Virus record (IMG/VR): IMGVR_UViG_3300022391_000001
Location: 32,001-96,000 of that record
From: a virus
DNA length: 64,000 nt
Strand: one strand, 5' to 3'
Under the pieces are notes generated by a model. The model was not told where the DNA came from and did not search any database. It saw only the letters and a list, made by a program, of their open reading frames with translations. A program made the translations under genes and the position numbers. Below, in pieces: positions 30,141-45,202 of this stretch. Every line of letters starts with the position of its first letter. Position 1 is the first letter of the stretch.

Positions 30141-30141
30141 C

Positions 30142-30645
30142 TCAGCTCGCTTTCTTGACACCGCCAGACGCTTTGCGCGGGCCACCCTTCGCCTTTGGCG
30201 CCGCTTTGGCTGCCTTGCTGACTTCCTTGGCTGCCTTTGCAGGCTCGGACTTGGGTTGTACCTCGGACTTCACCTCCGCCGGCTCAGTCTTATTGGGCTT
30301 CTTGCCCTTTGGTTTCTTGGTTCCAGACTTCTTGGCCTTTGGCTTCTCGGGTGCTTCAATCGGTAGCTTGGCATTCAGCCACTGCTTGGCACTCGCGTGT
30401 GCGGAGAAATTGAGCACCCACTTGTCACCGTAGGTGATAGAGCCACCCTCCAGGACTGGCGACGTGATCGTGCGGCCCTTCATGAGCTTGCGCTTGAACG
30501 TCCCAAACTTGTGGACTCGCAATTCAGTGCTCTTGGTCAGCAACTCCAACATGACTTCGAACGTCTTTTGAATTTGATCCTTGTGGACGCCAACCGCCTT
30601 GGCGATATCCGACACGCCCAAAATGACCTTTGTATCGTCTGACAT
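30142..30645 (-). CDS. HU/IHF-like DNA-binding protein with Lys/Ala tail
   Basis: LRVHKFGTFKRK...GRTITSP...LNFSA. Confidence 0.8.
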   Translation of the reverse strand: MSDDTKVILGVSDIAKAVGVHKDQIQKTFEVMLELLTKSTELRVHKFGTFKRKLMKGRTITSPVLEGGSITYGDKWVLNFSAHASAKQWLNAKLPIEAPEKPKAKKSGTKKPKGKKPNKTEPAEVKSEVQPKSEPAKAAKEVSKAAKAAPKAKGGPRKASGGVKKAS

Positions 30646-30675
30646 GATTCACCTCCTGTTTGTGTCTTTCCTGTC

Positions 30676-33600
30676 TTATGCAGCCCGCGCATGTTTGGCT
30701 GACTTTTTCAGGAGCTTGATCGCACCGTTGTTCAAGAAATATTGCCAACTTTTCCTGTCTTTCTTGCGATCTAGCTGAATTCGGAGATGATTGCCCGCCT
30801 TGATGTGCTTCTTGGCACTCGCGTCCCATGCCGACGCAAAGCAGATCACATCGATGTAGTTGCCAATCCCGTCGATGATGCCAAAAAAGGCCATTTCATT
30901 GCTGTTCTTGTCGTACTTCAACCGCACATGGGTAATGACCCCGGTGAACCAACTGCTCAACCCGAGTTCAAAGAGCTGATTGGTGATCGCGCTGGCGCGA
31001 AGCGTCGTGACCACTTCGCCCTCCGCGCCCTTGTATTTGATCTGCTTGTCGGCCCAAGGGTAGGACACCGACGGGTGCTGGCCTGCTATGATGCGCTCCC
31101 AGACAGTCAGCGGTGCCCCCTCGTTCACCTTCTTGCGGTACACTTCCAGATCCAATAGGAAATGGGCGCGCAAATTCTCATACCGCGCATTGGCCGACGC
31201 GTGAACCACCACCGGGGTCCCAACGCCCGCGTCAACCACCTCACGGAAGTCATCAAAGATGTCAAAGTCAACCTTGATCCGGTTCTGCTTCCCGCCGACA
31301 TCCTCCACGTTGACATTCGCATACCTCGCTCCCCAGAACATGTCCCGCCGCTCTTCAGCAGACGGAAGCTCCCCTGTGTGAAAGTCCCCCACCTGGTTGT
31401 ACTTCACCTCCACAACAACGCCGACGATGAACACTCCGGCTCCGTCGTTGTTCACCCAAAAGTCTTCATCGCTCATGGCGGCGATTGGAACCTTGATGTT
31501 CTTGGAGATGAAGTCCCCGTATGCATCAACTGGATGCTTCCCAAAGGCCAGAGGGTTGACCTGGGACGCGATCAACTGCCGCTCTTCATCGGCATAGTCG
31601 GGCTCCGCCGCCCATTGCTTCAGAAGCTCCCGAAGCCCCTCCTTGTCCTTCTTGTTGTACACCTTCCAGAAGTCTTCAATGCCCTCGATGAACTGCTTGA
31701 TATTGGGCAACATCTCATCGAGCGCTCCCGCGCGGGCCAGCGCCAAGACCACGCCCTTGTGACACTTGCGCCGGTCCACGCGGGCAAGGAAGTCAAACAG
31801 CCCCTTGTAAGGTTGATTCTCCATGATCGTTGTCGCCGCCGCTTCACCAACACCCTTGATGTCAACCAAACTCCCCCGGATGGCCCTGCGTCCCGAGTCA
31901 ATTGCAAACTGCTTCTTGGACATCGACACAGAGGGTGGCAGCAGCTCGATGTCGTGGCGCTTGACATCCTTTGCGATCTGCTGGATGCGGAGCCGCTGCG
32001 GCTCGTTCTTGAGCAGCGCCCAGTAGAATTCAAGCGGATACTTCCGCTTGAGCCACATCCCCCAATAGGCGATAACTGCATAACATACAGCGTGAGAGCG
32101 GTTGAATCCATAGCTGTTGTGTGATTGAAAATATTGAGGATTTGCACCTTTGGAACAGACCAAATAGTTGGCTAATTCACCACCGTGCTCACACTCGATG
32201 TCCCACATCGACTCCACGCCGATATCTCGGACTTCAACCACAACGGCGGAGCTTCCCAACGCCAACATCCTCACGCCCGGATACAGATCATTGGCTTTCA
32301 TCCACCCTTTGTCGGTATTCCACCAATGATCTGGAGAGCAAGCAAGAGTCTGGCCGCCTGTGAGCTTGATGTCGAATTGCCGACGCACGCCCGTCCTAGC
32401 AACCGTCTTGACTCTGTTTTCGGTTGGCCGCCCCTCGGAATCCAAGGACACGATTGAATCGCCTGGCTTCAAGTCGCTGATTGCTTTCGTTTCAGCCTGT
32501 AACTCCGAGAATAATGCATCGAACACATGTTCTTGCTGTATGTGACTCTGCCGCACCCCAAATAAATGCATATCGGCTCTTGCCGTTTTGAGCCCTTCAG
32601 ATGATAGGATGTGTGCGGCCCTCGTGCTGTTATCTCCAGATTGTCCAGAGTGTTGTTCGTCGTGTCGCCGTCGATATGATGCACCATCTCTCTGGACAAC
32701 AGCTTCCGACCAATCATCTTTTCCATGGCCACTCTGTGCTCCAGCTCCCAGCCATTCTCCGTCTTGATCGTCAAGTAACCATTCTGCTTCCCCTTGTCGC
32801 CAATTTTCTTCTTGCAAGTTGGCGCGCCGCGCTCCGTTGTCAACTCTAAATTGTCGATGTCGTTGTTCATCGGATCGCCGTCCTTGTGGATCACTTGCTC
32901 CCGATTTGTCAACCGCCGGCCTATCTTCTGCTCCATGAGCCATCGATGCTCTCTCACCCATCCCCTCTTTGTCTTCACATCCATGTATTTGCCGTCGCGT
33001 CGGCGGCTCCCTATTGGCTTGGCTTTCGGCATCCTCTTGACTCCCGTTGTCGTTTCGTTTAGCTTCTAACGAAACGACAACGCAAGAACAAGAGGGCAAA
33101 CAACCAAAAAAAGTTATCGCGTCCATCACCCGCCCAGCGGTCTTGGCGTCCATACCGCAAGTTGCCTTCGCGCCCTCGATGAAATTTTGACGCTCCTTGC
33201 CAATAGTCTCGTCGCCCCACTTCTTTGCGATCTTTTTCCTGAGTGAGTCAGCGGTGGCCGGAGGGAACCCGGCGACCTGTGTGAAAATCTTCAGCACATG
33301 CTCCTGGTACACGATGATCCCGAGGGTGTCCTTGGTGATCTCATCTACCAACGGGTGGCCAAAGGCTGACTTCTTGATCAGCTTCGGGTCCTTTTTGCGC
33401 GCCACGTACTGGGTGGCCAAGCCCGAGCGTGCGGTGCCCGGTCGATTCAGCGCTGTCATCGCAGCGATGTCTTCAAAGTTGTTGAACTCAACGCCTGAGC
33501 AAATCTTGTCGGCGCCCGGGGAATCGTATTGGAAGATCCCCACATAGTCATGGTCTGTGAACCCCTGGAGCACATCAGGCTCGTTGAGGTCCAACTTCTC

Positions 33601-35547
33601 CAAGTCGATGTCCACCCCGTGCCGCTCCTTGATCGCCTTCACGCAGTCGTTCAACACGGTCAGAGTCCGGAGCCCGAGCACATCGAGTTTAAGCAGCCCC
33701 ATCGCCGCCACGCCATACATGTCGATGGCGCTGACCACGACATCCTTGCCCTCGTGCTTCCGGATCTCCAATGGAACCAGATCCGTGAGCGGCACCGGTG
33801 ATGTAATCACCCCGGCGGCGTGTATGCCGAGGGTCTTGGCCATCCCCTCCAGCCGCTTGGCGTGACGGAGCACGTCTGGATACTTCGCGTTGAATTCCTG
33901 ACACACCTTGAATTCAGCGAAGCTGTCCTCAATGGTCTGGCTGGCCCGCTCATCGCCGCTGCTCCGCTCGATGATCGAAGCGGTGACCGCGTTCACCTCG
34001 GCATAGGGCACGTCCAGGACTCGGGACACATCCTTCAGGCACTGCTTCCCTGACAGTTTACCCACTGTCGCGATCTGACACACCTTGTCGGCGCCATACT
34101 TCTCACGCAAGTGGTCGATGATCTCCTGGCGACGCACATCCTCAAAGTCCATGTCGATGTCGGGCATGTCGATACGACTGGGTGAGATGAACCGCTCAAA
34201 GATCAACCCGTGCTCGATGGGGTCCACGGAGGTGATGCCCAGCAGGAATGAGACGATTGAACCGGCGGCGGAGCCCCGCCCTGGCCCGCAGGCGATGTTC
34301 TGGCGTCGCACCCAATCATACAAGTCTCGGACCAGCAGGAAGTAACCGATGAACCTCTGCCGCTTGAGCGCCCCCAATTCCATCTTCAGACGGTCCCGGT
34401 AGATGGCGACGGCTTGGGCCGGCGGCATCTTCATCCGGCGGGCATAGGCGGCTGCCCGGCTCGGGATATCCCGCCAGCTCCAACCTCCGATGCACAGCTC
34501 TTTCAGGTACTGATACTGCTGTGCATCTGTGGCGTCATATCCGCCATATTCACTCGGGAGCCGAAGCGCCGGCATCAAGCACGCGAAGCGGTCGATGTTG
34601 ATGATCTTCGGCTCGATCATGCTATTGAACAGCAGAGTGTTGTCCAATGCCTCCTTGATGACCTTGTCAGACATGAATTCATGGTTATCTTGGAAGGCTG
34701 TCTTCATCTCCGCCCGAGTCCGGAGGTGAAACTCATTGTTGCCGAAGCGGAACCTGTCTGGGTTGGACATCCTGTCCCCGGTCCCGATACAGAGCATCAC
34801 CTCGTGGGCGTCGGCATCCTTCTGGTCGACATAGTGGGCGTCTTGCGTCGCCAACAGGCGTGCGTGCTTGCCCCAACGCTCCCGGAGATCCAATGCGAAT
34901 TGGTTGGCCAACCGTTGATCGTCGATGGCGTGCGGTTGCACCTCCAGCCAGAGGTCTTCACCGAAGCGCTCCCGCAGCTTCTCGGCGTCGGCCAATGCCA
35001 TCCGCTTCTTGCCCGTCGCAACCCGGTCGTTGATCGGCGATGACAAGCAACCGGTGGCAACCGCCAATCCGTCGCCGTGTTCCATCAGCGCCTTGAGGTC
35101 GATGCGCGGCTTGTAGTAGAATCCCTCTGTCCAGCCCATCGTGGACAGCCGATACAAGTTGCGGAGCCCTTCGGCGTTCTTGGCCCAGACGGTGATGTGC
35201 CACCGGTCCCGGATCCCCCAGTGCTCCTCATACCCCTTGACGGCGTTCTTGGCGTCGGCGCGATTCATCCCCTGGGTGATCTCCGCCCGCTCTTCAGGCG
35301 TGATCCCCTTGCGATGCATGTCCATCGCGACATAGAATTCAATCCCGTATATGGGCTTGACGCCGTGCTCCTGGCACTCCAACAGCTGCTGGTAATATCC
35401 GCGCATCGTGCCGTGGTCGGTGATCGCGATGGCTGGCGCTCCGCGCTCCTTGGTCGCCTTGACATAGTCGGCGACCTTGCCGCAACCGTCCAATTGGCTC
35501 ATATCCGCGTGTACGTGCAAGTGGACAAAGTCTTCAGCCTTTGACAC
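30676..35547 (-). CDS. dnaE: DNA polymerase III alpha (DnaE) precursor containing an intein
   Basis: FVHLHVH..SQLDG PHP, GPGRGSAAGS, MPDIDMDF, HAAG, KLDVLGL, YGFNRSHA, HhH and OB domains. Confidence 0.97.
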   Translation of the reverse strand: MSKAEDFVHLHVHADMSQLDGCGKVADYVKATKERGAPAIAITDHGTMRGYYQQLLECQEHGVKPIYGIEFYVAMDMHRKGITPEERAEITQGMNRADAKNAVKGYEEHWGIRDRWHITVWAKNAEGLRNLYRLSTMGWTEGFYYKPRIDLKALMEHGDGLAVATGCLSSPINDRVATGKKRMALADAEKLRERFGEDLWLEVQPHAIDDQRLANQFALDLRERWGKHARLLATQDAHYVDQKDADAHEVMLCIGTGDRMSNPDRFRFGNNEFHLRTRAEMKTAFQDNHEFMSDKVIKEALDNTLLFNSMIEPKIINIDRFACLMPALRLPSEYGGYDATDAQQYQYLKELCIGGWSWRDIPSRAAAYARRMKMPPAQAVAIYRDRLKMELGALKRQRFIGYFLLVRDLYDWVRRQNIACGPGRGSAAGSIVSFLLGITSVDPIEHGLIFERFISPSRIDMPDIDMDFEDVRRQEIIDHLREKYGADKVCQIATVGKLSGKQCLKDVSRVLDVPYAEVNAVTASIIERSSGDERASQTIEDSFAEFKVCQEFNAKYPDVLRHAKRLEGMAKTLGIHAAGVITSPVPLTDLVPLEIRKHEGKDVVVSAIDMYGVAAMGLLKLDVLGLRTLTVLNDCVKAIKERHGVDIDLEKLDLNEPDVLQGFTDHDYVGIFQYDSPGADKICSGVEFNNFEDIAAMTALNRPGTARSGLATQYVARKKDPKLIKKSAFGHPLVDEITKDTLGIIVYQEHVLKIFTQVAGFPPATADSLRKKIAKKWGDETIGKERQNFIEGAKATCGMDAKTAGRVMDAITFFGCLPSCSCVVVSLEAKRNDNGSQEDAESQANREPPTRRQIHGCEDKEGMGERASMAHGAEDRPAVDKSGASDPQGRRSDEQRHRQFRVDNGARRANLQEENWRQGEAEWLLDDQDGEWLGAGAQSGHGKDDWSEAVVQRDGASYRRRHDEQHSGQSGDNSTRAAHILSSEGLKTARADMHLFGVRQSHIQQEHVFDALFSELQAETKAISDLKPGDSIVSLDSEGRPTENRVKTVARTGVRRQFDIKLTGGQTLACSPDHWWNTDKGWMKANDLYPGVRMLALGSSAVVVEVRDIGVESMWDIECEHGGELANYLVCSKGANPQYFQSHNSYGFNRSHAVCYAVIAYWGMWLKRKYPLEFYWALLKNEPQRLRIQQIAKDVKRHDIELLPPSVSMSKKQFAIDSGRRAIRGSLVDIKGVGEAAATTIMENQPYKGLFDFLARVDRRKCHKGVVLALARAGALDEMLPNIKQFIEGIEDFWKVYNKKDKEGLRELLKQWAAEPDYADEERQLIASQVNPLAFGKHPVDAYGDFISKNIKVPIAAMSDEDFWVNNDGAGVFIVGVVVEVKYNQVGDFHTGELPSAEERRDMFWGARYANVNVEDVGGKQNRIKVDFDIFDDFREVVDAGVGTPVVVHASANARYENLRAHFLLDLEVYRKKVNEGAPLTVWERIIAGQHPSVSYPWADKQIKYKGAEGEVVTTLRASAITNQLFELGLSSWFTGVITHVRLKYDKNSNEMAFFGIIDGIGNYIDVICFASAWDASAKKHIKAGNHLRIQLDRKKDRKSWQYFLNNGAIKLLKKSAKHARAA
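32116..33102 (-). mobile_element. intein (329 aa, residues 816-1144)
   Basis: FFG|CLPS...ISDLKPGDSI...CSPDH (block B)...GW..A.DL..G...MWDIE...SHN|S; removing it restores FFGSYGFNRSH. Confidence 0.93.
32469..33032 (-). CDS. tandem-HNH homing endonuclease nested out-of-frame within the intein
   Basis: two EHR..ME..IGR.L...E.V.H.DGD..NN..DNLE repeats; own GGAG/GAGG RBS; +1 frame relative to dnaE. Confidence 0.9.
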   Translation of the reverse strand: MPKAKPIGSRRRDGKYMDVKTKRGWVREHRWLMEQKIGRRLTNREQVIHKDGDPMNNDIDNLELTTERGAPTCKKKIGDKGKQNGYLTIKTENGWELEHRVAMEKMIGRKLLSREMVHHIDGDTTNNTLDNLEITARGPHTSYHLKGSKRQEPICIYLGCGRVTYSKNMCSMHYSRSYRLKRKQSAT

Positions 35548-35597
35548 CCGATCCCTCCAATCGGCGGCGTGTATATCCTACCAAACCACTCGGACGT

Positions 35598-36185
35598 TTA
35601 TTCGCCCAACCTTGATAGGACTGCGCGCGCCGCGTCGCCTTTGACCACGTTGGTGGTTGTGATATGGCACTTTGGAACCGTGATGGAGCGCTCGAACATC
35701 AGCGTGAACAGCCGGTCCAGTGTTCTCCAATCGGCCTGCGATGGGAACCACCTCCCCTCGCAGCGCCGCTTACAAACGTCATAGGCGGCGGTCATCCAAA
35801 CGTACAGCACATCGCCGCCCTGCTGTGTCATCAGCTCCTGCCAGAATCCCACCAATTTGCGGCTCGCAGACAGGTCCTTGTAGTAACCATCCAGATGGTT
35901 GTGAAGCACACCATAGGCGACAGCGGAGGGCAGCGAGCGGTCCAATATGACGTTTGCTCGGAGGGTGCCTAGCAGGTCTGCCGTGAAAAGATCCTCGATG
36001 TGGCAGTTCAGAGGTATCCGGAAGTCATCCCTGAGCACTCGCTCCGCGTCGCCCTCGTGCCCCCAATGCAGATCGGAGTTGCCCCGCCTGAACGGCCGAT
36101 ACACCGGCCATTCAAGCCACTGCGACAGCTCCTGGGCACAAGATGACTTGCCAGTCCCGTTGAGCCCCTCCAATATGATGATCAC
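35598..36185 (-). CDS. dNMP (thymidylate-like) kinase, divergent
   Basis: IIILEGLNGTGKS P-loop; ILDRSLPSAVAY. Confidence 0.82.
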   Translation of the reverse strand: MIIILEGLNGTGKSSCAQELSQWLEWPVYRPFRRGNSDLHWGHEGDAERVLRDDFRIPLNCHIEDLFTADLLGTLRANVILDRSLPSAVAYGVLHNHLDGYYKDLSASRKLVGFWQELMTQQGGDVLYVWMTAAYDVCKRRCEGRWFPSQADWRTLDRLFTLMFERSITVPKCHITTTNVVKGDAARAVLSRLGE

Positions 36186-37459
36186 AGAGCCAACCCCTTG
36201 TGAACAGCATCCACCGCTGCCAATGCCCAAGCCAGATCATTCTCCGGGATGGTCAGCGGCGGTGTGAATCGGATAGGCCCGAATTGCCGATGCGTGGCAA
36301 ACAACAATCCGACTTCCCGCGCCCGATGGATGAACTGAAAACCGTCATATCCATAGGTGTGAAAGTCGGGCGTGAAGGCGTTGAGCATCCCGAAACCATC
36401 GACGCTGGCCACCCAATCATAGCCACCCAACACCGTCCGGATCATCTCCCCCCGTTTACGCACCATCGGCAAATTGGCATCCAACCATCTGAACATCTCC
36501 GCTGCCATGTGACAGACAAAGGGCGAGCCCCCGAAGGTGTTGAAGTGGACTCCTGGAGTGAACGCCTTGGCGACATCCTCCGACGCCAGCATACAGCTCA
36601 TCGGGAAACCCATGGCCAAGCCCTTGGCCAGCGTCATGATGTCGGGCTTGACTCTGATCTTCGGGTGCTGCCACGTGGCGTGATAGCCCGCGCGTCCCGA
36701 GCCCGCTTGCACATCGTCATAGATGAGCAGGAAACTGTGCTGCTTGCGTATCCTGGCCAACTCTTGCCAGAATGCAGGCGGATATGTGTGCACAGTGTTG
36801 TTGCCCAAGACGGGTGCGAGAATGACGGCGGCGACTGTGTCCCAATCTGGCGCCTTGGGCTCGTGCTCGGCGCCGTCTGTAACCACCTGTTGGAGCACCA
36901 ACTCATCTTCACGCCATCTAGGGTCCAGGACTCCGAAGCCAGCAGCGATGGGCCCAAACCCGTGGCGGTGATATGGACTGACTCGGAAGTCCCCGGCGGC
37001 GAGACTCAGACCGGTGCGCCCATGGAAGTTGCCTTCCATCGTCAAGATGCGGCGCCGCTCTTCATGCCCCCGGTCCCACCAATACTTGCGCGCAATCTTG
37101 ATGGCTGCCTCGTTGGCTTCAGTCCCGCTGTTGGAAAAGAAGATCCTGTCCATCTCCGTGCGCTGGCAAATCAGCTCCGCCGCTTCCCAGCGCGTTGGAT
37201 TGGGATAGATGTCAGGGAGCTGGTGCGGAGCCCCGGTGCCAAAGAATTTGAACACCGCCTGAAGAACCTCCGGCGTGTTGTAGCCCAGCGCGCAGACACC
37301 CTCATCCCCCCAGAAATCCAAAAGGCGTTGTTGCTTCTCAACATCCTTGACGGCACTTCCGGCTGCCGATTCAACCGTTATCGGCAGCCGTACCACGTTG
37401 TTCATCAGACGGCCGTTGTACTTCTCGGTGTTGACCGTCGTGTCCTCATTCTGGTTCAT
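36182..37459 (-). CDS. class-III PLP-dependent aminotransferase (ArgD/OAT-like)
   Basis: FSNSGTEANEAAIK, FHGRT, DDVQAG, TLAKG (PLP Lys), TFGGSP, IRFTPPL. Confidence 0.9.
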   Translation of the reverse strand: MNQNEDTTVNTEKYNGRLMNNVVRLPITVESAAGSAVKDVEKQQRLLDFWGDEGVCALGYNTPEVLQAVFKFFGTGAPHQLPDIYPNPTRWEAAELICQRTEMDRIFFSNSGTEANEAAIKIARKYWWDRGHEERRRILTMEGNFHGRTGLSLAAGDFRVSPYHRHGFGPIAAGFGVLDPRWREDELVLQQVVTDGAEHEPKAPDWDTVAAVILAPVLGNNTVHTYPPAFWQELARIRKQHSFLLIYDDVQAGSGRAGYHATWQHPKIRVKPDIMTLAKGLAMGFPMSCMLASEDVAKAFTPGVHFNTFGGSPFVCHMAAEMFRWLDANLPMVRKRGEMIRTVLGGYDWVASVDGFGMLNAFTPDFHTYGYDGFQFIHRAREVGLLFATHRQFGPIRFTPPLTIPENDLAWALAAVDAVHKGLAL

Positions 37460-38415
37460 CGGCCATCCTTTCTGGTGCCTGTCCAAGGATCCCTGCCCCA
37501 GAAGCGTTCATATTGCGTCGCACGCTCCATCATCTCCGCCTTCATCGGCACGTCCACGTTGCCCAATGCCAAGGGCAAGGGCTCCGTCGTCCATTCGCGG
37601 TTGAGATGGAGCGGACACGGTGGCAGCTTGTCGTCCCCGGTCAACCGGCGGCGGCATTCTTCTTTGTACACGCATCCCATGAAGTCATCTCCCGACATGC
37701 ACGGCGGTGAGACCATCTCCCGGAATATGGGGTGAATCTTCTCGGCGCACTCGTTGATCATCCCCTCGATGATGGGCCCCCAAATTCCAAGCTGCAAAAT
37801 CCAACATCCCCGCTTGCCCACGATGTGCTGCAGCGCTGAGATGTTCAGCTTCCAGCTGATCCGGTGTTGCGCCCCCAACGGTATCAGCTCCCGAGCATCC
37901 TCCATCGGTATCCCTGCCGCCACCAGCGCGTTGTATCCCGCCTGAATCCGCTCCATTGTCGCCCTGTACAAGTCAATGAGCGTGCTATCCGGATGTTGCT
38001 GAATTGTCAAGGGCAGCCGGTATGCCTCATTGGTGGCAAAGCTCCCCATGTCCTGGATGCGCATCGACTGAGACCACCATGAACTCTTGGCCAAATCAGG
38101 TATCTCATCCATCACTATGTCGGCGCCCACTCGCTCCGGCGAAGGGAGCGTGCCGATCCGATGGCGCACCGCCTGCTCCCGCCAAGATACAGAGACACCC
38201 TCCAGCATGAACACGAGGTCCACGTGCTCGCCGATCGGGATGCGCTGGGCTATCACCGCCCTGAAGAGCTTTTCAATCTCTTCAGGGGCCACGTCCCGCT
38301 TGATCTCCGCCGGAGTCCGAAGCGGCTCCTCAGTCTTGCTGGCCTCCCACACGCTGTACACCAGCTCCAAAGGGTCCCGAGTCCAGGTCAGCAGGGTCAC
38401 TTCCGGTTCATTCAT
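37456..38415 (-). CDS. thyX: divergent FAD-dependent thymidylate synthase (ThyX-like)
   Basis: EH...F.LEGVS...EQAVRHR...SQSMR...GIPMEDARELIP. Confidence 0.8.
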   Translation of the reverse strand: MNEPEVTLLTWTRDPLELVYSVWEASKTEEPLRTPAEIKRDVAPEEIEKLFRAVIAQRIPIGEHVDLVFMLEGVSVSWREQAVRHRIGTLPSPERVGADIVMDEIPDLAKSSWWSQSMRIQDMGSFATNEAYRLPLTIQQHPDSTLIDLYRATMERIQAGYNALVAAGIPMEDARELIPLGAQHRISWKLNISALQHIVGKRGCWILQLGIWGPIIEGMINECAEKIHPIFREMVSPPCMSGDDFMGCVYKEECRRRLTGDDKLPPCPLHLNREWTTEPLPLALGNVDVPMKAEMMERATQYERFWGRDPWTGTRKDGR

Positions 38416-39185
38416 CGCACAATCTCCTTGAATTCTCTCACCACTTTAACAGGCACCTTGTCCTGCACTTCTTCAATCTCCAACGCCCCTTGCGGAGCCC
38501 CCCGCTGAAGCAAGAACATCGATGACATCCGATGCCACGTCACCACCATAAGTGTGCCAAAGTCGTATCGCTCCTTGTATTTCCGAGCCACCACCCGAAA
38601 GTAGTCAGGCCAGTGATCAGGGTGCATCCCGATGGACTTGTGGTATGACGCCCGGTTCTTGGGGAATCGGGACAATCCGAAAATGGCGCTGTCGGTGATC
38701 GTCACCCACTTCTTGGACGCCTTGAAGATGGCGTCAACCGCGTCCATGTAGCGCTTCTCGGTCAGAAATCGGTTGAATGTGAGCTGATTGAAATCGGCGT
38801 GCACCCAATCCCAATACCGTTTGGGTTGTTCACCGATGAAAGCATAAGAGTCTGTGACCCTGGCGTTCACGTCCGGAAGCGATCGCTTGATGGACATCAC
38901 GCAATCCTTCTCGATGTCCAATGCCAGGTGCGCCCTTGGTTTGCACAGCTGCTGGATGATGGAAGCGTGCCAGCCGGAGCCGCCAAACAGTTCCACCACG
39001 CGCCCCACCTTGCCCACCTTCTCGGCCACCTTTTGGAATGCGGCTAGCTCCGCGTGAATCTCATGCCGGCGGATGGCGTAGTGCGAGTGCGGAGCGTCCT
39101 TGCCGATCAGCGCCCGCTCTTCATCGCTCGATGAATCGCACACATACATGCGTTGGCCGCCCAGATCAATCTCGGTGATGTTCAT
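38412..39185 (-). CDS. class-I SAM-dependent methyltransferase-fold protein
   Basis: VVELFGGSGW (motif I), LALDIE, TDSY, WDWVHADF. Confidence 0.7.
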   Translation of the reverse strand: MNITEIDLGGQRMYVCDSSSDEERALIGKDAPHSHYAIRRHEIHAELAAFQKVAEKVGKVGRVVELFGGSGWHASIIQQLCKPRAHLALDIEKDCVMSIKRSLPDVNARVTDSYAFIGEQPKRYWDWVHADFNQLTFNRFLTEKRYMDAVDAIFKASKKWVTITDSAIFGLSRFPKNRASYHKSIGMHPDHWPDYFRVVARKYKERYDFGTLMVVTWHRMSSMFLLQRGAPQGALEIEEVQDKVPVKVVREFKEIVR

Positions 39186-40104
39186 CCCGGTTCCCTTCGA
39201 TGGCTTCGGCGGCGCGTTTGACAATAGCAGGCCAATCAGACACCCGTTGAATCAGCCGCGTATCCTTCAATTCCCTGTTGTATGGCCAATCCAATAACAG
39301 AACAGGCACACCTATGGACGCGACTTCCAGACAATGCTTCACCCGGTCCTCCACAAAGAAGGTTGGGCGCGCTGGAAAGATGTGCTCATAGATCAATTCT
39401 GCCTTGTCTTTCCCGAATAAAATCAAGTCATAGGCCATCCCGTGTTCTCTGAGCCAAAACATCGTATCGGCATACAGGTTCTTGTATTGCGCATATGGCC
39501 GTGCTGTCATCAACACGATCTTGAACCCGAGGTCCCGGATGGCTTGCGTTGCTTCAGAAGCCCCTCTTATGGGCGGCAGCTCCCGGAATTGGCCACCCCT
39601 GTAGAAATCCTCCTTGAGCGATTCAAGCAGAGCGATGGTCCGATCGTTCATTGGGGCTCCGCCCTGGGCACTGTTGAGTTTGTCTTGCCACTCGCTCAAA
39701 TCGGCCAGGCAGTTGTCCACGTCGATGACAACCAAGCGGGTGGAAGTCTCCAGCGCCAAACGCTCCCCTCGGGCTCGATCATCGACCACCGCCGACTTCC
39801 GCATGAACGAGTCATACAGCCCGTCGGAGTCCACCCCGTACAGCTGCGCGATTGCAATCAGATACTTGAGCACATCGGCGGCTTCATCAGCCAAATTGAC
39901 CTGCTCCACGGGTCTGCTCCGGAGCACATGCGCCTTGAAGTGCGTGGCGACCCGCATCAGCTCCGCTGCTTCTTCAAACATCCCCAAGGCCAAGTCCTTG
40001 GACACCCGAGCCCGGTCCATCGGCGACATCGCCGATGGGTCCAGGTTGAACGTCTCTTGCTGTCGCGCTTGGCGCTTGAACATCTCATCCCATCGGTCGG
40101 ACAT
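39166..40104 (-). CDS. dimeric dUTPase/MazG-like domain fused to a HAD 5'-nucleotidase-like domain
   Basis: EEAAEL...DEAADVLKY...K N-domain; VVIDVDNCLAD, MTAR, K, FVED, PYN C-domain. Confidence 0.85.
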   Translation of the reverse strand: MSDRWDEMFKRQARQQETFNLDPSAMSPMDRARVSKDLALGMFEEAAELMRVATHFKAHVLRSRPVEQVNLADEAADVLKYLIAIAQLYGVDSDGLYDSFMRKSAVVDDRARGERLALETSTRLVVIDVDNCLADLSEWQDKLNSAQGGAPMNDRTIALLESLKEDFYRGGQFRELPPIRGASEATQAIRDLGFKIVLMTARPYAQYKNLYADTMFWLREHGMAYDLILFGKDKAELIYEHIFPARPTFFVEDRVKHCLEVASIGVPVLLLDWPYNRELKDTRLIQRVSDWPAIVKRAAEAIEGNRDEHHRD

Positions 40105-41062
40105 CGAACCATCTCTCAGCCAGGTCAATCGCATCCTCCAACACCACATCCATGGTGGAGCGTGAATTCCATGTCGCAAATCGGCCCAGCGGTGCTATGT
40201 TATTTGGCCACTCGGGCTCCACTTCCAACGGCAGCAGATGCCCCTTCAACCCCTCCGTCACTTGATCTATGGCCCACCCATCCTGAAAGATGAAATTGAG
40301 GTCAGAGTGCATCCTCGGGACATCCAACTGGCCGTTGATCTCCACGGAGTAGCCGGAGCCCGACGGCGAGAAACGGTGAACGGCGTCGGCAGGGGTGTAC
40401 GGTGTGTACACATAGTCCCATTGGACGTATCGGTCCCGCAGGGGATGGACCTGGATGACGTTCAGCTTCATCGCAACGCCCTCCGGCACATAGAAGTCAG
40501 CCATCCGACGCACCGCCCACAACGGAATTGTGACCACGCAGTAGTCATAGGGCACTGACACCCCTGATGCGGTCTGCAACGCACCACCCCGGATCCCCGT
40601 CACCGCCGTCTTCATCACCATGAGCCCACCGGCCAATTTCGTGATCACCTCTGGGAAGTGAGCCCGGATGGCCTTGCGGGGCTTGGCTGCCGCCGGATCA
40701 TTCATCGCCGTCGCTGCGGACTCCGCGTCCGCTTCTGTGCGTCGCGTCTTGCGGTAGTGATCGGCTCGTATCCGGGCTGCCTCGGAGCCCGGAAGCGAGT
40801 GCAAATATTTGGGATAGGGATGCACCCCGCCGCGAAGCATGATCCCGCCTGAAATCGCATAGTCGCTGTAGACCACCCCCAATTCATCAAACAGGTTGAT
40901 CATCCCGATGGTGTGGTGAATGTATTTGAGCCCTCCGGCGAGAAATTCCCCGCCCAAGGCGCCCGACTCTATCACCAGAACCTCCGCTTGCAGTCGCCTG
41001 AACACATACGACGCGATCAGTCCAGACATACCACCGCCGATGAGAACCACGCGCGGTTTCAT
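40085..41062 (-). CDS. FAD/NAD(P)-binding oxidoreductase
   Basis: VVLIGGGMSGL...IE...LGG Rossmann, VVTIPL, C-terminal LGRFATW. Confidence 0.85.
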   Translation of the reverse strand: MKPRVVLIGGGMSGLIASYVFRRLQAEVLVIESGALGGEFLAGGLKYIHHTIGMINLFDELGVVYSDYAISGGIMLRGGVHPYPKYLHSLPGSEAARIRADHYRKTRRTEADAESAATAMNDPAAAKPRKAIRAHFPEVITKLAGGLMVMKTAVTGIRGGALQTASGVSVPYDYCVVTIPLWAVRRMADFYVPEGVAMKLNVIQVHPLRDRYVQWDYVYTPYTPADAVHRFSPSGSGYSVEINGQLDVPRMHSDLNFIFQDGWAIDQVTEGLKGHLLPLEVEPEWPNNIAPLGRFATWNSRSTMDVVLEDAIDLAERWFDVRPMG

Positions 41063-41184
41063 TGATTGCCCCAATTATTGTTGGATTAAAAGGCGGGTGA
41101 CGCCGCTGATGGCCGGAAGTCAGCCATGAAAACCCACCATCGCGGCGCCACCCACGCCTCCACCGAGCCCCGGACAAGGAAAGC

Positions 41185-42057
41185 TCATACTGGTGGAGGC
41201 AACCAGTTTAGTCTACCCTCACGGATCATCCGCCCGTAAACCTGCGCCACAAACCTCGCTCCGTCCTTGTCGTGATCTGAGGCACGAGAAGTGAAGAAAC
41301 CATCGACATGCGGGGCCAAGTGGAGCTGTTTGAGTTCAGCTTGAGAAACACCCTTCCACTCCGTCGCTCGGAGCGGTGTCAAGACATCTACCAGCCCAGT
41401 CCGTGGCTTGAAGAGAACCAACGCCAATGGCTGGTCCCGCCCGCTCGATGTTCTCACATAGATTGACATGTATTTGCTCTTCTTGCGCCTATCCGATGTG
41501 TACAGCCGTCCCGGCAAGAGCGCTTGGGAGCCCTTGGGATACTTGTACGGGATCTGCTCCAGCAACGCCGCTCGGAAGTGCTCAAAAATCTTGTAACAGT
41601 CCAACCGGTTGCGGATCGACAACGCCACCAGCGCTTCCGTCGCCGCGCTCTGCGAACAATCGCGTGGCAGCCGCTTGTTCTTGCGTCGCCCCTTCGCGCT
41701 GCGAATCATGTGTTTGCGTGGTGTTACCTTGGACGGATCCCTCTTGGACAATCCGCCCCGGATGCCCCAACGCCGGATGACCTTGTCCAGCTCTTTCATG
41801 AACTCGGTGGCATCCTGCTTGGCGATGGCGTAATGATCCTCCACTCCGTCCACCTCGCACAGCTGGATCTCCACCAAATCGTCCGTGGTCTTCTTGCTTT
41901 CCCTCAAATAGATCTGGAAGGCAGCACAGTGGTTCCGCCACAAACAAGGCTCGCTCTGATCCGGATCTTCGTGCTCCGGTTCCCCGTCACAGGTCTCATC
42001 CCCACGCTCGTATTGCCCCACGCAGGGTGGCATGTATTTGTTGGCATCGTCGCTCAT
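41185..42057 (-). CDS. hypothetical protein (N-terminal Cys cluster)
   Basis: PPCVG...CDG...CLWRNHC; coupled to the sigma gene. Confidence 0.65.
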   Translation of the reverse strand: MSDDANKYMPPCVGQYERGDETCDGEPEHEDPDQSEPCLWRNHCAAFQIYLRESKKTTDDLVEIQLCEVDGVEDHYAIAKQDATEFMKELDKVIRRWGIRGGLSKRDPSKVTPRKHMIRSAKGRRKNKRLPRDCSQSAATEALVALSIRNRLDCYKIFEHFRAALLEQIPYKYPKGSQALLPGRLYTSDRRKKSKYMSIYVRTSSGRDQPLALVLFKPRTGLVDVLTPLRATEWKGVSQAELKQLHLAPHVDGFFTSRASDHDKDGARFVAQVYGRMIREGRLNWLPPPV

Positions 42058-43130
42058 TCTTGCCCCTCCTTGAGCCGCTTCACCAGGTCCCCATACCAAC
42101 CTACAGGCACCTTTTCGCGTGCGCCGTCGGCACCGTAGACCACACCTAACAGCGCGTTGAATTTCCCCTCAAGCACCAATGTGCGGCGGAGCTTCCCCTT
42201 GCCCAAGACCAACACCACGCCCCACTCATAACGCTCGATCATCCGAGACCACTCACCGGCTGCCTGGAAGTGATCCGGCTCCGCCGCGTAGCCCGGAATT
42301 GGCCGAGGGTCCAATCCCCTCCGCTCGATCACCTCTGCCACAAACTCGTGATCGTGATAAGGGGCCTTGCTGATGTGAATCACCGGCCACCCCTTTTCTG
42401 CTACTGCCTCGCCAAACAATTCGCTGAATTCCGAGTCATACTTGGCCATTTTTGTGAACAACAAACGGATTTTGTGCAAGCTCCAATCAACTGTGTTCTT
42501 GGTGACCCCTAAGTAGCGTGCGATGGCGATGCTGGGGACTTCCTTGCTCGCGTCGCCGCCGCTGTTCTTGATCATCTTCAGCAGCTCCACCGACGGATTG
42601 CATCGGGCTGTAAATACCTTCTTGTCCAACCCCGTCAAGGTGTTGAGCAGTCGGAGCTTCATCCGCTTCGCTTGCGCGTCCAACTCCGCCCAGCTACACA
42701 CCACCTCGGGCGATTCATCCGACGCTGCCGGCTCATAGCCCCAACCGTCGCCGTCCCATGCGAGCATGTCATCGAGCGACAACAATGGAAGTGGACGCTT
42801 CACGGCGTTGCCGTCGGCGTCGGTCACGATCACAAAGGGAGTCCGACACTGCGCCAGCTCGTGATACACCAGACCAAGGTAGGCATTGGTCAGGACGCGG
42901 CTGGCATAGGCCACCAAGCCGCCCTTCGCCTTGTTGTAGTCGTATCGCAACAGCGCGCCGAGAAGGGCCAACCGTCCCTCCTGGATGGCGTCGTCCACGC
43001 CGATGGACGGGAGCGAGCGGTGCAACGCCCGGCTCTTATGGAGGATGGCTGGATACACCCTCCGCTCGATGTCGGGGTACATCTCCCGGAGCGCTTCAGG
43101 GCAGCGCCAGCCCTCTGGGAAGGTGGTCAC
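42054..43130 (-). CDS. phage RNA polymerase sigma-70-like factor
   Basis: region 2 DDAIQEGRLALLGALLRYD...LVAYA, LSLD, region 4 IARYLGVTKNTVDWSLHKIR. Confidence 0.8.
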   Translation of the reverse strand: MTTFPEGWRCPEALREMYPDIERRVYPAILHKSRALHRSLPSIGVDDAIQEGRLALLGALLRYDYNKAKGGLVAYASRVLTNAYLGLVYHELAQCRTPFVIVTDADGNAVKRPLPLLSLDDMLAWDGDGWGYEPAASDESPEVVCSWAELDAQAKRMKLRLLNTLTGLDKKVFTARCNPSVELLKMIKNSGGDASKEVPSIAIARYLGVTKNTVDWSLHKIRLLFTKMAKYDSEFSELFGEAVAEKGWPVIHISKAPYHDHEFVAEVIERRGLDPRPIPGYAAEPDHFQAAGEWSRMIERYEWGVVLVLGKGKLRRTLVLEGKFNALLGVVYGADGAREKVPVGWYGDLVKRLKEGQE

Positions 43131-45100
43131 GCTGCCACTCCCTTCTTGCCCTTGAGCAACTGGCTCCGCATCAGCTTGTACACTTCAACGGCCAATGCCT
43201 CAATGTCGTTCACGATGACATGGGTGGCGCCGTGCCGCTCGTTGTAGAAGTCCTGGACGGTCCTGGTCTGTGCGCCGATCCCAATCACCTCGATGCCCGA
43301 GCGTGTGATCTTCTGGATTGCTTCCTTGAGTGCCTTCTCGTTGGTATCTATCGCGACACCGCCGCCTGCCGGTTGGCCGTCAGAGAGCACGAACATGATC
43401 TTGCGTGTCTCGGAGCGCTTCGCCAGCCGCTCCGCGACCATCATCACCGCTTCACAGTCCACGTTGTCTTGGCGGCCCGTGATCGTCGTGAGACGGCTCC
43501 GCACCTTGCGGTAGGACTCGCTGAACGCCTTGAACATGTGGTATTCCATCGGTGCCATGCGGCTGTAGCCGTCCCGCTCGCAGCGGATACTGTCGCGAGT
43601 GCGAGTGTGGAAACCGATGATCTCAAATGGAATGTTCAGCGCGGCGAAAGTCTCACCCAGCGCCACTGCCATCAGCTTCGCCTGGTATGCTTTGGTGGTG
43701 TAGCTGTATCGGCTGTTGCCGTCGCCGTTGCCCATCGAGCCGCTGAGGTCGATGAGGATGCTGATCGCGGTGTCTAGCTTCTCGCCCTGCTCTTCAACCT
43801 GAAACACCGCCCGGTTGCCGGTGCGCACAGAAGCGAGCCTGGAGCTGTCCAACTCGCCGCTCCGCTGATCGCCGATGAGCTTGGATGCCGCCCGAGCCCG
43901 AATGACGGTGGTGAGCTTGCCCTTCAGCCCTCGGATCTGCGCGGCCACCTTCTCTTTGATGACGTTGTACTCCAGGTTGCTGTCGGCACGAGTGTGCGGG
44001 ATAATCTGTGCATCCGCCGCTGCCGCTTGCGGGTGTGCGGAGTATCGGCGATTGCGGCTGCCGTCGGCGCGAGCGGCGTCAATCACTTGCTCCTTGGCCA
44101 GCTCCATGAGGTCGCCGTTGTCGGCGTCCTTGAGCATCGCTTGGCGGCCAGCTTCGGCGGCTGCTTCACGGGCTGCCTCGTCACCTTCGCCACCGCTGTC
44201 CTCGGAAGCCCCTCCGCTGCCCGTCTCTGCGTCTTTGTCCTCGCCCTCATCCTCGCCCTTGGACTCGCCTGAATCCTGGTCTTCTGCGGCATCCTCGTCA
44301 TCCTCGTCACCAGCGGCACTGGACTCGCCGTCTGCCTCGTCACCCTCGTCACCGGCGGAGCCGCTCTGCTCGCCCTGCTCACCCTCGGACTCGCCCTGCT
44401 GACCCTGCTCGCTCTGCGCTTGGTCGGCGTCTTGGCCCTGCTCGCCCTTCTGCTGCGGCTCGCCCTTCTGCTGCTCGGGCTGTTCCAGCTCTTCAGCCTT
44501 GTCGCCGATCTTCTTGATCGCGCTACGGGCCAGCGCCAGACTGTCGGAGCCCCAACGGGACTTCGGGCCAGCGGCGATCTCGTCAGCAACGGCGTCCATG
44601 TAGGGTGTGAACTCGGCAGGCATCCAGCTCGTGTCCAGGCCGTGCGCCGCGAAGATGATGCCGCACCCGAGGGTGTGCCAGAAATTCTTGGAGTGATCGG
44701 ACTTCTGCTGATACTGCCGGACGCTGTTGAGGTTGGCGGCGGCCAAATTCTCCGCCATCCCCGGATACCTGGCGCTGTACTTGTGCTCAATCCGGATGTC
44801 CTCAAACACGTTGAGGAGCATCTTCTCACGATTGGTCCGGCACTTCCGGCAAAGCTGAAGCGGAGTGATCTGCCCGGCGTCGGCGTGATCCCGCTCGTCA
44901 GCTACGTGCGCCGTCTCGTGGTCGAGAAGCCCGTGGAGAACCTTCTGATCGGCGTCCTTGAGGTGGTCGGCGTTGAACGGGTACTTGATCGTGTCGCCGT
45001 CGGTGCAGCACTCATATCCCGAGGGCACTACGTTGACCTGCCAATTGCGGCTCATCGCCCGAGCGATGTTCGTGAAAAGGGAGCTTCGGTCTGTGATCAT
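43127..45100 (-). CDS. CobT-like protein (HExxH domain, acidic linker, VWA)
   Basis: DHETAH, NVFEDIRIE, IDLSGSM, VLSDGQP, IGIG. Confidence 0.88.
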   Translation of the reverse strand: MITDRSSLFTNIARAMSRNWQVNVVPSGYECCTDGDTIKYPFNADHLKDADQKVLHGLLDHETAHVADERDHADAGQITPLQLCRKCRTNREKMLLNVFEDIRIEHKYSARYPGMAENLAAANLNSVRQYQQKSDHSKNFWHTLGCGIIFAAHGLDTSWMPAEFTPYMDAVADEIAAGPKSRWGSDSLALARSAIKKIGDKAEELEQPEQQKGEPQQKGEQGQDADQAQSEQGQQGESEGEQGEQSGSAGDEGDEADGESSAAGDEDDEDAAEDQDSGESKGEDEGEDKDAETGSGGASEDSGGEGDEAAREAAAEAGRQAMLKDADNGDLMELAKEQVIDAARADGSRNRRYSAHPQAAAADAQIIPHTRADSNLEYNVIKEKVAAQIRGLKGKLTTVIRARAASKLIGDQRSGELDSSRLASVRTGNRAVFQVEEQGEKLDTAISILIDLSGSMGNGDGNSRYSYTTKAYQAKLMAVALGETFAALNIPFEIIGFHTRTRDSIRCERDGYSRMAPMEYHMFKAFSESYRKVRSRLTTITGRQDNVDCEAVMMVAERLAKRSETRKIMFVLSDGQPAGGGVAIDTNEKALKEAIQKITRSGIEVIGIGAQTRTVQDFYNERHGATHVIVNDIEALAVEVYKLMRSQLLKGKKGVAA

Positions 45101-45135
45101 GGCTGACTTCCTTGCTTGTCCTTGTCCTATTCCCT

Positions 45136-45164
45136 AGCATAATTGATGCGTGTTCAGAAGTCGA
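45136..45164 (-). promoter_or_regulatory. conserved phage promoter TCGACT-N17-TATGCT
   Basis: GTCGACTTCTGAACACGCATCAATTATGCTAGG. Confidence 0.7.
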
Positions 45165-45202
45165 CCCCAAATTAAGGCAAAATCGACCTTGGGGGCCAAC
45201 TA

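Follow-up and report, generated by a model that had tools for sequence, protein, structure and literature searches.

The subject of this analysis is a six-gene operon of an uncultured estuarine phage of ~105 kb, located on the minus strand at positions 35598-41062 of a 64,000-nucleotide window. The window, which here means the whole stretch analysed, corresponds to positions 32001-96000 of an IMG/VR virus record (IMGVR_UViG_3300022391_000001) that is complete at 105,469 bp and carries direct terminal repeats. The operon encodes a flavoprotein, a fusion of a MazG-like pyrophosphohydrolase with a HAD-type deoxyribonucleotidase, a candidate methyltransferase, a divergent ThyX-like flavoenzyme with four additional cysteines, a class-III aminotransferase dependent on pyridoxal phosphate (PLP) and a kinase of the Tmk family, and it is followed by the gene of the replicative polymerase DnaE. 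Judged from its gene content, the operon is interpreted, with a probability of about 0.5, as a pre-replicative pathway to an amine-bearing, C5-substituted dUMP that would be used by the phage's own DnaE polymerase. This interpretation is supported by gene identities at the level of fold or family, by catalytic motifs, by tight coupling of the genes and by their conserved co-occurrence.

Operon architecture and enzyme assignments

All six open reading frames (ORFs) are present on the minus strand, as are all genes surrounding the operon. The likely start codons lie at positions 41062, 40104, 39185, 38415, 37459 and 36185, each is preceded by a Shine-Dalgarno-like motif, and successive genes overlap by 20, 20, 4, 4 and 4 nt, respectively. 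The start of dnaE (35547) follows 50 nt beyond the kinase stop codon. An arrangement of six overlapping, translationally coupled genes ahead of dnaE had been proposed in a preliminary description made from the sequence alone, and these positions bear it out. Upstream of the operon, a long, GC-rich hairpin followed by UUUU (41087..41163, minus strand) ends ~25 nt before the flavoprotein start. Its stem of ~20 bp is very stable: the region 41063-41190 (minus strand) folds with -60.9 kcal/mol (z = -4.5), and 0 of 200 shuffled sequences folded equally well. Because this terminator-like hairpin marks the upstream boundary, the six genes are regarded as a unit of their own. A scan for promoter and terminator consensus motifs within the operon returned nothing beyond chance.

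The fourth gene (37456..38415, minus strand) encodes a ThyX-like flavoenzyme of 319 aa that belongs to a virus-only subfamily, termed Cys4 here. Its match to Pfam Thy1 (PF02511) reaches 69.9 bits (cut-off 24.8), its score against TIGR02170 is 53.8 bits and thus under the equivalog cut-off of 87.9, and a ThyX fold was confirmed by Foldseek matches to the T. maritima and M. tuberculosis enzymes (E ~2e-08, TM by target ~0.7). The contiguous RHR-x7-S-x-R-Y signature of ThyX proteins is absent: an insertion of ~22 residues, a stretch that was poorly modelled, parts R84-H85-R86 from S117-M-R119-I120. The motif after the insertion reads S-W-W-S-Q-S-M-R-I, and the split pattern holds in 11 close homologues. 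An alignment to T. maritima ThyX (TM0449) pairs R84/H85/R86 with R78/H79/R80, R175 with R147 and R202 with R174; S117 and R119, judged by their place in the motif, presumably equal S88 and R90 of the T. maritima numbering. Since R84/R86, R119, R175 and R202 match T. maritima arginines, the FAD- and dUMP-holding arginines are retained. Serine is found at the Glu86 position and isoleucine at the Tyr91 position (SxRY becomes SMRI), and the His53 position is not conserved, in a region of weak alignment; the equivalents of His53, Glu86 and Tyr91 are residues that we take to be linked to folate use. Beyond the R174 equivalent, C-W-I-L-Q-x-G-x-W takes the place of the canonical segment and includes C204, two residues after that arginine, and a C-terminal extension of ~100 residues carries the other three cysteines.

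In a subfamily alignment of 113 sequences (112 cluster representatives and the window's protein), C204, C239, C248 and C267 are present in 110-112 of the 113, and R79, R84-H85-R86, W114, Q116, S/T117, R119, R175, R202, Q208, W212 and W306 are near-invariant. A profile search among 1.84 billion representatives recovered 223 clusters (50% identity) at E <= 1e-30; at 90% identity the subfamily comprises >560 clusters, all metagenomic. It was found in viral and metagenomic sequences alone, and a scan of 185,579 species genomes for the Cys4 ThyX pattern confirmed no relative, a single peptide pattern being no proof of absence.

The aminotransferase (36182..37459, minus strand) is a class-III (omega) PLP enzyme resembling acetylornithine aminotransferase (AcOAT). 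It matches Pfam Aminotran_3 (PF00202) with 228.3 bits against a cut-off of 30.5 (E 1.7e-67). The NCBIfam argD subfamily model gives 233.8 bits against a cut-off of 410.05, and the scores for every other ArgD, AstC and OAT model are also below cut-off. In a profile search of the PDB, the best match was AcOAT 2eh6 (1e-99), followed by succinylornithine, putrescine and ornithine aminotransferases. Across 10 homologues, the PLP lysine K288, the pyridine-nitrogen aspartate D257, the FHGR157 motif and T317 are invariant, and R400 is nearly so. An exact-peptide search for the aminotransferase in viral contigs returned nothing, which reflects a limit of the method, since tblastn recovered the gene in all related loci. 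Searches of cultured phages with the aminotransferase and three ThyX variants yielded only distant matches (<=32% identity).

The first gene (40085..41062, minus strand, ATG at 41062) encodes a flavoprotein of 325 aa. By sequence, matches are confined to the FAD/NAD(P) Rossmann N-terminus with its GxGxxG motif: no Pfam family scores above cut-off, and a PDB sequence profile likewise recovered the FAD-binding N-terminus alone. An AlphaFold2 model built with ten homologues (pLDDT 89) displays the two-dinucleotide-binding-domain fold with an N-terminal GxGxxG. In VIA-align comparisons, the model matched UDP-galactopyranose mutase (UGM; 4dsh) with Z 27.0 over 320 aa, PPOX with Z 23.6 and amine or amino-acid oxidases with Z of about 21, and the matches to UGM, PPOX and amine oxidases each span >=300 residues. 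Renalase was among the Foldseek matches. Structural neighbours in the Atlas have TM values by query of 0.81-0.85 (0.76 for one viral cluster), and all named ones carry PF01593 (Amino_oxidase). By its model, the protein is thus a member of the amine-oxidase/PPOX/UGM superfamily, a fold that alone does not give its chemistry; amine/imine or flavin-adduct chemistry would be more in character than simple alcohol oxidation.

The second gene (39166..40104, minus strand, likely ATG at 40104) encodes a fusion of an N-terminal MazG-like, all-alpha NTP pyrophosphohydrolase and a C-terminal HAD 5'(3')-deoxyribonucleotidase of the cdN/NT5C type. The NT5C domain (PF06941) scores 33.8 bits (cut-off 24.8, E 4e-08), and the MazG part (PF03819), with 16.8 bits, is below its cut-off of 22; the MazG/PRA-PH match is weak. 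Profile matches in the PDB included cytosolic 5'(3')-deoxyribonucleotidase (7e-07) and, weakly, the MazG-type YpjD and dCTPP1-like proteins. Both catalytic motifs are kept in 11 homologues, namely the acidic motif of the MazG part (E69, E70, E73, D102, K105; EExxE...D...K) and HAD motifs I-IV (D153-x-D155-x4-D160, T225, K259, E277-D278), of which the D-x-D-x4-D motif resembles cdN. The deoxyribonucleotidases cdN and mdN prefer dUMP and dTMP.

The last gene of the operon (35598..36185, minus strand) encodes a Tmk-family deoxynucleoside monophosphate (dNMP) kinase of 195 aa with a divergent nucleoside monophosphate (NMP)-binding region. It matches PHROG 761, "thymidylate kinase" (3.9e-14), and falls below the cut-offs of Pfam Thymidylate_kin (PF02223; 17.4 versus 27 bits) and TIGR00041 (22.4 versus 83.25). 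The P-loop EGxNGxGKS and the DRS...PS..AY motifs are conserved. Instead of DR followed by an aromatic residue, it reads D82-R83-S84; the canonical thymidylate kinase of the same phage (47511..48134, minus strand; 64.4 bits with Pfam Thymidylate_kin) reads DRW and shares 24% identity with the module kinase over 103 aa.

The remaining gene (38412..39185, minus strand) encodes a protein of ~257 aa that is probably a class-I S-adenosylmethionine (SAM) methyltransferase. Searches of Pfam, NCBIfam and PHROG gave no match. A motif-I-like (GxGxG-like) segment, ELFGGSGWH, is kept in 3 homologues, with acidic residues at the expected spacing, and the feature neighbours in the ESM Atlas include class-I methyltransferase clusters (0.92, 153-163 features shared), which is to be taken as a lead only. 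This is the weakest of the six assignments.

The gene identities in the preliminary description fared well on the whole. A divergent ThyX, a class-III PLP aminotransferase, a dNMP kinase, an FAD oxidoreductase and a separate canonical Tmk had all been named, and each is recovered here, the oxidoreductase by its FAD/NAD(P) N-terminus and modelled fold and the kinase by its PHROG match. Of the proposed dUTPase/MazG-HAD fusion, the nucleotidase half is secure, and the pyrophosphohydrolase half has a conserved acidic motif and sub-threshold scores. The suggested SAM methyltransferase fold finds an echo in the motif and the language-model leads and none in the profile libraries.

Conservation and genomic context of the module

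Viral contigs were searched with the ThyX-like protein, which gave 15 loci, and with a broader alignment, which gave 67; all ORFs of these loci were profile-searched (loci are cited by their L numbers). The flavoprotein, MazG-HAD fusion, ThyX-like protein, aminotransferase and kinase occur together with strong scores in 23 of the 67 loci. Three more loci carry the same five-gene set with a weak or shorter flavoprotein match, and two further module loci are truncated by contig ends. This arrangement is far beyond chance. Conservation of the gene neighbourhood had been named in the preliminary description as a check on its proposal, and such conservation is seen for the five core genes, in a replication-linked setting. 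Across the module loci, identity to the window's proteins drops to ~50% for ThyX and 26% for the aminotransferase, and the gene order is shuffled: the aminotransferase stands before or after ThyX, and in some loci the kinase precedes ThyX. The module invariably follows the same CobT, MoxR and unknown genes and immediately precedes dnaE, which comes next in all group-A loci that reach that far. In a quick version of a ThyX tree, the proteins of the module loci form one clade (SH-aLRT 99) nested in the wider subfamily; therefore, a single assembly of the module, followed by its retention, is probable.

Only five of the 27 module loci, on four distinct contigs, carry the methyltransferase gene. 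Hence, five genes are core and the decorating genes vary, and N-methylation, which had been proposed as part of the route, is no core step. Other insertions are a second class-III aminotransferase in L008 (L008:8695-9921), a sulfotransferase-family protein in L014 (L014:12488-13261) and its near-duplicate contig, and an MT-A70 adenine methylase in L004 (L004:12839-13423). Small ExoX-C-like proteins are encoded between kinase and dnaE in many relatives (L002:12844-13323, L004:13339-13782, L007:11535-11945, L008:11028-11879); the window, where this gap measures 50 nt, has no such gene.

The canonical Tmk is not conserved in relatives. At the syntenic position in L002, L004 and L006 no canonical Tmk is found, and primase directly follows the N6 methylase or DnaB. 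Among five complete relatives, a second Tmk-like gene occurs in one, the module kinase stands alone in three, and one has no Tmk match. By this comparison of gene content, the module kinase is the clade's conserved kinase and not a redundant extra, which weakens the earlier argument that a second kinase would be redundant unless it had another substrate: a canonical Tmk exists in this phage and in one of the five complete relatives only. The divergent NMP region and the fixed place beside ThyX would still fit a dedicated kinase role. ThyA (PF00303) was found neither in this genome nor in four complete relatives, with control genomes positive; the ThyX-like protein is thus the only C5 one-carbon enzyme in these five complete genomes. 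A search of five complete clade genomes for ribonucleotide reductase found none, and dCMP deaminase, which would feed dUMP, is encoded in 3 of 5 searched genomes, this phage not being among them. A supposed paralogy of u304 and u358, which single linkage had joined, was rejected as they show no pairwise similarity.

The Cys4 ThyX is also widespread in phages outside the module, and the divergent ThyX is hence not confined to the operon, which weakens the preliminary description. About 38 of the 67 loci represent a PolA-encoding phage type in which the Cys4 ThyX is present without aminotransferase, flavoprotein and kinase. Loci of this type include L043, L049, L058, L063, L068, L077 and ~30 others (e.g., L077:4610-9263; L059:6940-8915). 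Their fixed neighbourhood begins with an SNF2 helicase, a PD-(D/E)XK nuclease and AAA_24, continues with a nucleoside-2-deoxyribosyltransferase-like protein, an HD YfbR-like 5'-deoxynucleotidase and a DUF6378 protein, and ends with a radical-SAM/SPASM enzyme or a short-chain dehydrogenase (SDR), followed by ThyX, PolA and primase. The gene content of this block suggests a second tailoring route, unrelated to that of the operon, around the Cys4 ThyX. In six PolA-phage loci there is, in addition, a second, very divergent Cys-rich ThyX paralogue without the loop insertion (L051:5742-6650, L055:319-1227, L067:1800-2681, L073:1759-2643, L089:4413-5294, L090:6079-6936), which reads HRH..SFFSESHQ and has an extra C-terminal CC..GC..GC. 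A NADAR-domain gene lies between both paralogues in L067, L073 and L089. It is unlikely that two ThyX paralogues in one phage both make dTMP.

Around the operon, the window carries an extended replication block. In the 5' to 3' direction on the minus strand, it starts with a UvsW-like helicase, a large gene with a weak winged-helix helix-turn-helix match, an IstB-like ATPase and DnaB, followed by an N6/N4 DNA methylase, the canonical Tmk and primase. A MoxR-CobT pair and two genes without known function (one with a weak sigma-70 match) then precede the operon. The pair, in which a CobT-like VWA protein is joined by an AAA+ ATPase of the MoxR/CbbQ type (43127-46378, minus strand), is conserved ahead of the module in nearly all related DnaE phages. 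Downstream of the operon follow the polymerase, an HU-like protein, RecA, an SbcCD-like pair and a 5'-3' exonuclease. The DnaE-type replicative polymerase (30676..35547, minus strand; 1623 aa) comprises PHP, DNA_pol3_alpha, finger and HHH_6 domains, and the gap between the finger and HHH domains fits an intein.

When the nucleotide sequence of the operon was compared with 50,697 phage records, no match was obtained. The stretch from 30000 to 44000 of the window is contained whole in a 19-kb contig (depth 68) of one estuary library labelled metatranscriptomic, and pieces occur in two more. This contig may represent DNA carry-over or the source sample, and contigs of this kind cannot show transcription or base modification. 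A relative of this stretch with ~95-99% identity was found in a sediment sequencing run.

Predicted pathway and competing explanations

In the favoured interpretation, the MazG domain would hydrolyse a canonical pyrimidine deoxynucleoside triphosphate (dNTP), i.e., dUTP and/or dTTP, to the monophosphate, and the fused cdN-type nucleotidase would remove dTMP, both domains thereby supplying dUMP and depleting thymidine nucleotides. The Cys4 ThyX-like protein would bind dUMP and transfer a carbon unit to C5 via a flavin-N5 adduct, without releasing ordinary dTMP. The flavoprotein and the acetylornithine-type transaminase would interconvert amine and aldehyde, either on the side chain or on its donor, and leave a primary amine, which in some relatives could be decorated further by the methyltransferase, the second transaminase or the sulfotransferase. 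Finally, the Tmk-like kinase would phosphorylate the modified dNMP, and a host NDP kinase would complete the triphosphate. From the assignments given above we infer every substrate, the order of the steps, the product and its incorporation into DNA. That the product is 5-aminomethyl-dU, N-methylated where the methyltransferase is present, is a specific and rather unlikely version of this scheme.

Several observations speak for this interpretation. Catalytic residues are conserved in every module component, an ordinary dTTP supply calls for neither transaminase nor flavoprotein, and the omega-transaminase class handles aldehyde/amine pairs. Analogy offers some further support, as the closest cultured homologue of the ThyX-like protein is encoded by an SP15-type phage and SP-15 makes a hypermodified uracil at the nucleotide level. 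The two Cys-rich ThyX paralogues in six PolA loci argue that not all of these proteins simply make dTMP. The PolA-phage ThyX is again flanked by a canonical-nucleotide hydrolase and by redox or radical tailoring enzymes, a context that would favour modification.

Other points weigh on the opposite side. No cultured member of the clade was present among the phages searched. In the ~38 PolA-phage loci, the Cys4 ThyX is not tied to a transaminase, flavoprotein or kinase and could therefore be a plain, if odd, thymidylate synthase; that the protein keeps the FAD- and dUMP-binding arginines agrees with such a role. The canonical Tmk in this phage suggests that dTTP is still wanted. The specificities of the MazG, HAD, kinase, transaminase and flavoprotein components are read from family and fold. 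Moreover, the oxidation of a hydroxymethyl to a formyl group, which the preliminary description had placed in the pathway, is not favoured, since enzymes of the amine-oxidase fold predicted for the flavoprotein are not typical alcohol oxidases.

An alternative explanation, though an unlikely one, is that the operon serves an ordinary dTTP supply and is accompanied by unrelated auxiliary genes. The MazG domain would then act like a dUTPase to give dUMP, the ThyX-like protein would be a normal synthase, peculiar to the lineage, whose cysteines form a structural zinc site, and the kinase would be a dTMP kinase; the flavoprotein would reduce or support ThyX, and the aminotransferase would be an auxiliary metabolic gene for amino acids or polyamines. 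Besides the retained RHR, R119, R175 and R202 equivalents, the ThyX fold and the many PolA phages in which the subfamily stands without aminotransferase or flavoprotein, it would account for the module kinase being the sole Tmk-like gene in three of the five complete relatives, where it need not be "extra," and for the closeness of the aminotransferase to ArgD. It accords poorly with the persistence of transaminase and flavoprotein, neither of which has a role in dTTP supply, in a coupled block in 23 loci despite the shuffled gene order, and a deoxynucleotidase fused to a pyrophosphatase would waste dTMP or dUMP. The aminotransferase also scores far below the ArgD cut-offs, the ThyX-like protein is without Tyr91 and Glu86 equivalents and below the equivalog cut-off, and two Cys-rich ThyX paralogues stand together in six loci. 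Even if the ThyX-like protein were an ordinary synthase, one would still have to account for its four-cysteine site and for its conserved association with transaminase and flavoprotein. A variant within the modified-deoxyuridine interpretation, and a distinctly unlikely one, is that transaminase and flavoprotein turn an amine, such as putrescine, ornithine or a polyamine, into an aldehyde donor, which the ThyX-like protein would couple to C5 of dUMP. The aldehyde would replace methylene-tetrahydrofolate via a flavin-N5 adduct, and the product would bear a longer aminoalkyl side chain in place of aminomethyl. In line with this, the nearest solved relatives of the transaminase interconvert the omega-amines and omega-aldehydes of ornithine derivatives and putrescine, and the flavoprotein fold is common to polyamine and monoamine oxidases and to UGM, which forms flavin-N5 adducts with an aldose carbon. 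The equivalents of His53 (in weak alignment), Glu86 and Tyr91, presumably linked to folate, are missing in the ThyX-like protein. Solved ThyX structures contain, according to their titles, a formaldehyde-derived N5-carbinolamine flavin (7ndw, 7ndz), so an aldehyde can load the ThyX flavin, in agreement with a coupling mechanism of this kind. A ribose label enters the five-carbon side chain of the SP-15 uracil, as stated by the title of a reference in PMC5977210. All of this is circumstantial, however, and no ThyX is known to act with an aldehyde longer than formaldehyde.

Two further explanations place the product elsewhere. The module might make or destroy a nucleotide-derived small molecule outside DNA, for example to manipulate the host pool or to block a nucleotide-sensing defence. 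Phages use nucleotide-pool enzymes against defences, all parts of the module act on nucleotides or small amines, and nothing in the sequence shows incorporation into DNA; the constant position directly upstream of the replicative polymerase, within the replication block, and the monophosphate kinase, which makes most sense if the product goes on to a triphosphate, nevertheless render this improbable. An amino-sugar nucleotide route, which the preliminary description had named as an alternative, is very improbable. Here, the transaminase would act together with a UGM-like flavoprotein to modify a nucleotide sugar destined for glycosylation of DNA or of the surface. UGM is indeed the best structural match of the flavoprotein (Z 27), with PPOX and amine oxidases merely ~3-6 Z units below it. 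Sugar aminotransferases, however, normally belong to the DegT family and not to class III, the partner enzymes (ThyX, Tmk-like kinase and deoxyribonucleotidase) are deoxynucleotide enzymes, and scans of the module and of extra genes in relatives turned up neither a glycosyltransferase nor a sugar nucleotidyltransferase. Pathways based on 7-deazaguanine, 2-aminoadenine or dCMP were considered as well and rejected: the module scans revealed no matching genes, and R202, which we take to be the equivalent of the uracil-contacting arginine, is invariant in all but one gapped sequence.

A wider proposal, tentative and somewhat doubtful, is that the Cys4 ThyX-like proteins constitute a new class of flavin-dependent, probably metal-containing dUMP C5-transferases that seed several DNA hypermodification routes. 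They would then be the ThyX-world counterpart, in uncultured phages, of the ThyA-type hydroxymethylases. One route would use the omega-transaminase and the amine-oxidase-fold flavoprotein (DnaE phages), another a radical-SAM/SPASM enzyme or an SDR (PolA phages), and a distant cousin would act in the synthesis of dihydroxypentyl-uracil in SP-15. The phage described here would replace thymidine with an undescribed amine-bearing nucleotide made wholly at the free-nucleotide level. If real, a ThyX-based route in which a transaminase adds an amino group on free nucleotides would represent a new biosynthetic logic, as the amine-bearing thymidine derivatives of the pathways found in the literature are finished on DNA (PMC8989533, PMC13326640, PMC13458397). 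It would also provide new enzymes for the synthesis of modified dNTPs, explain restriction evasion by a large, globally distributed clade of ~100-kb uncultured phages, assign a testable function to a virus-only ThyX subfamily of 223 clusters and offer a lead on the still unsolved SP-15 pathway. New here are the four-cysteine signature, the module-free PolA context with its radical-SAM or SDR partners, the pairs of ThyX paralogues and the link to SP15-type phages, together with the indications that the module arose in one clade, that the canonical Tmk is not conserved and that the methyltransferase is an accessory gene.

Comparison with known base modification systems

Pre-replicative replacement of thymidine takes place in Bacillus phages of the SPO1, SP8 and phi-e type, which contain 5-hydroxymethyl-dU, and the system of T4, which contains hydroxymethyl-dC, is analogous. 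In these phages the modified dNMP comes from a homologue of thymidylate synthase, while the canonical nucleotide is cleared by a dNTP pyrophosphatase and/or a dNMP phosphatase. The new nucleotide is then phosphorylated by a phage dNMP kinase and used by the phage's own polymerase. The preliminary description had pointed to this logic of base-replacing phages, and the operon shares it in that, by homology, a synthase homologue, a canonical-nucleotide hydrolase and a dedicated dNMP kinase are conserved together beside replication genes. The systems differ in that the synthase homologues of SPO1 and T4 belong to the ThyA family, whereas that of the operon is a ThyX-fold flavoenzyme with four extra cysteines, and the operon adds a class-III transaminase and an amine-oxidase-fold flavoprotein. 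Literature searches for a module of ThyX, transaminase and flavoprotein found no paper describing the combination, in agreement with the earlier statement that it is not recognisable from a characterised pathway.

A second point of reference is the post-replicative hypermodification of thymidine in phages such as PhiW-14, SP10, ViI, M6 and PaMx11 (PMC5889632, PMC8989533). Here too, PLP enzymes, flavin oxidoreductases and varying tailoring enzymes build an amine-bearing group on the C5-methyl of thymidine; in PaMx11, an FAD-dependent lyase leaves 5-aminomethyl-dU (PMC5889632, PMC8989533). The gene sets are combinatorial across viral metagenomes, a pattern that recurs in the tailoring genes varying among relatives of the module (PMC8989533). 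However, the thymidine and cytidine hypermodification pathways described so far start from ThyA homologues (PMC8989533, PMC13326640, PMC13458397). Those on thymidine begin with a ThyA-type dUMP hydroxymethylase, followed by a 5-hydroxymethyl-dU DNA kinase (5-HMUDK) and aGPT-Pplase amino-acid:DNA transferases that act on DNA, and their PLP enzymes are decarboxylases, whereas the operon encodes a transaminase. No module gene resembles 5-HMUDK or aGPT-Pplase in the Pfam and PHROG scans, which were not accompanied by a dedicated search for those families. With its ThyX homologue, its mononucleotide kinase of the Tmk type, its nucleotidase and its transaminase, the operon points instead to chemistry on free nucleotides.

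With regard to its individual enzymes, the operon departs from their cellular counterparts. Compared with canonical ThyX (TM0449, PF02511/TIGR02170), the ThyX-like protein keeps the fold, the RHR motif and the equivalents of R90, R147 and R174 and differs by its loop insertion, the SMRI motif, the CWILQxGxW segment, the C-terminal extension and the four near-invariant cysteines. ArgD proteins are the best sequence relatives of the transaminase and share its PLP lysine, aspartate, FHGR motif and C-terminal arginine; the operon enzyme, however, scores below every NCBIfam ArgD cut-off and is encoded in a phage nucleotide operon without any other gene of the arginine pathway.

The closest homologue of the ThyX-like protein in any cultured phage is the annotated ThyX of Listeria phage LIS04 (Thornevirus SP15; E 7e-16, 23-26% identity), which is encoded near a nucleoside 2-deoxyribosyltransferase and an HD protein and which, in contrast, has neither the four cysteines nor the RHR motif and loop insertion. 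SP-15 itself carries a pair of ThyX-like genes; one of them, gp130, "has no homologs" and was hypothesised to start the modified-base pathway, and the SDR gp129 is listed among the genes of that pathway (PMC5977210). According to works referenced in PMC5977210, its dihydroxypentyl-uracil is made as a nucleoside triphosphate. A class-III transaminase partner has not been reported for SP-15, where the function of gp130 is itself a hypothesis. Set beside these systems, the operon would amount to a pre-replicative replacement or hypermodification of a pyrimidine that is built from different enzyme families.

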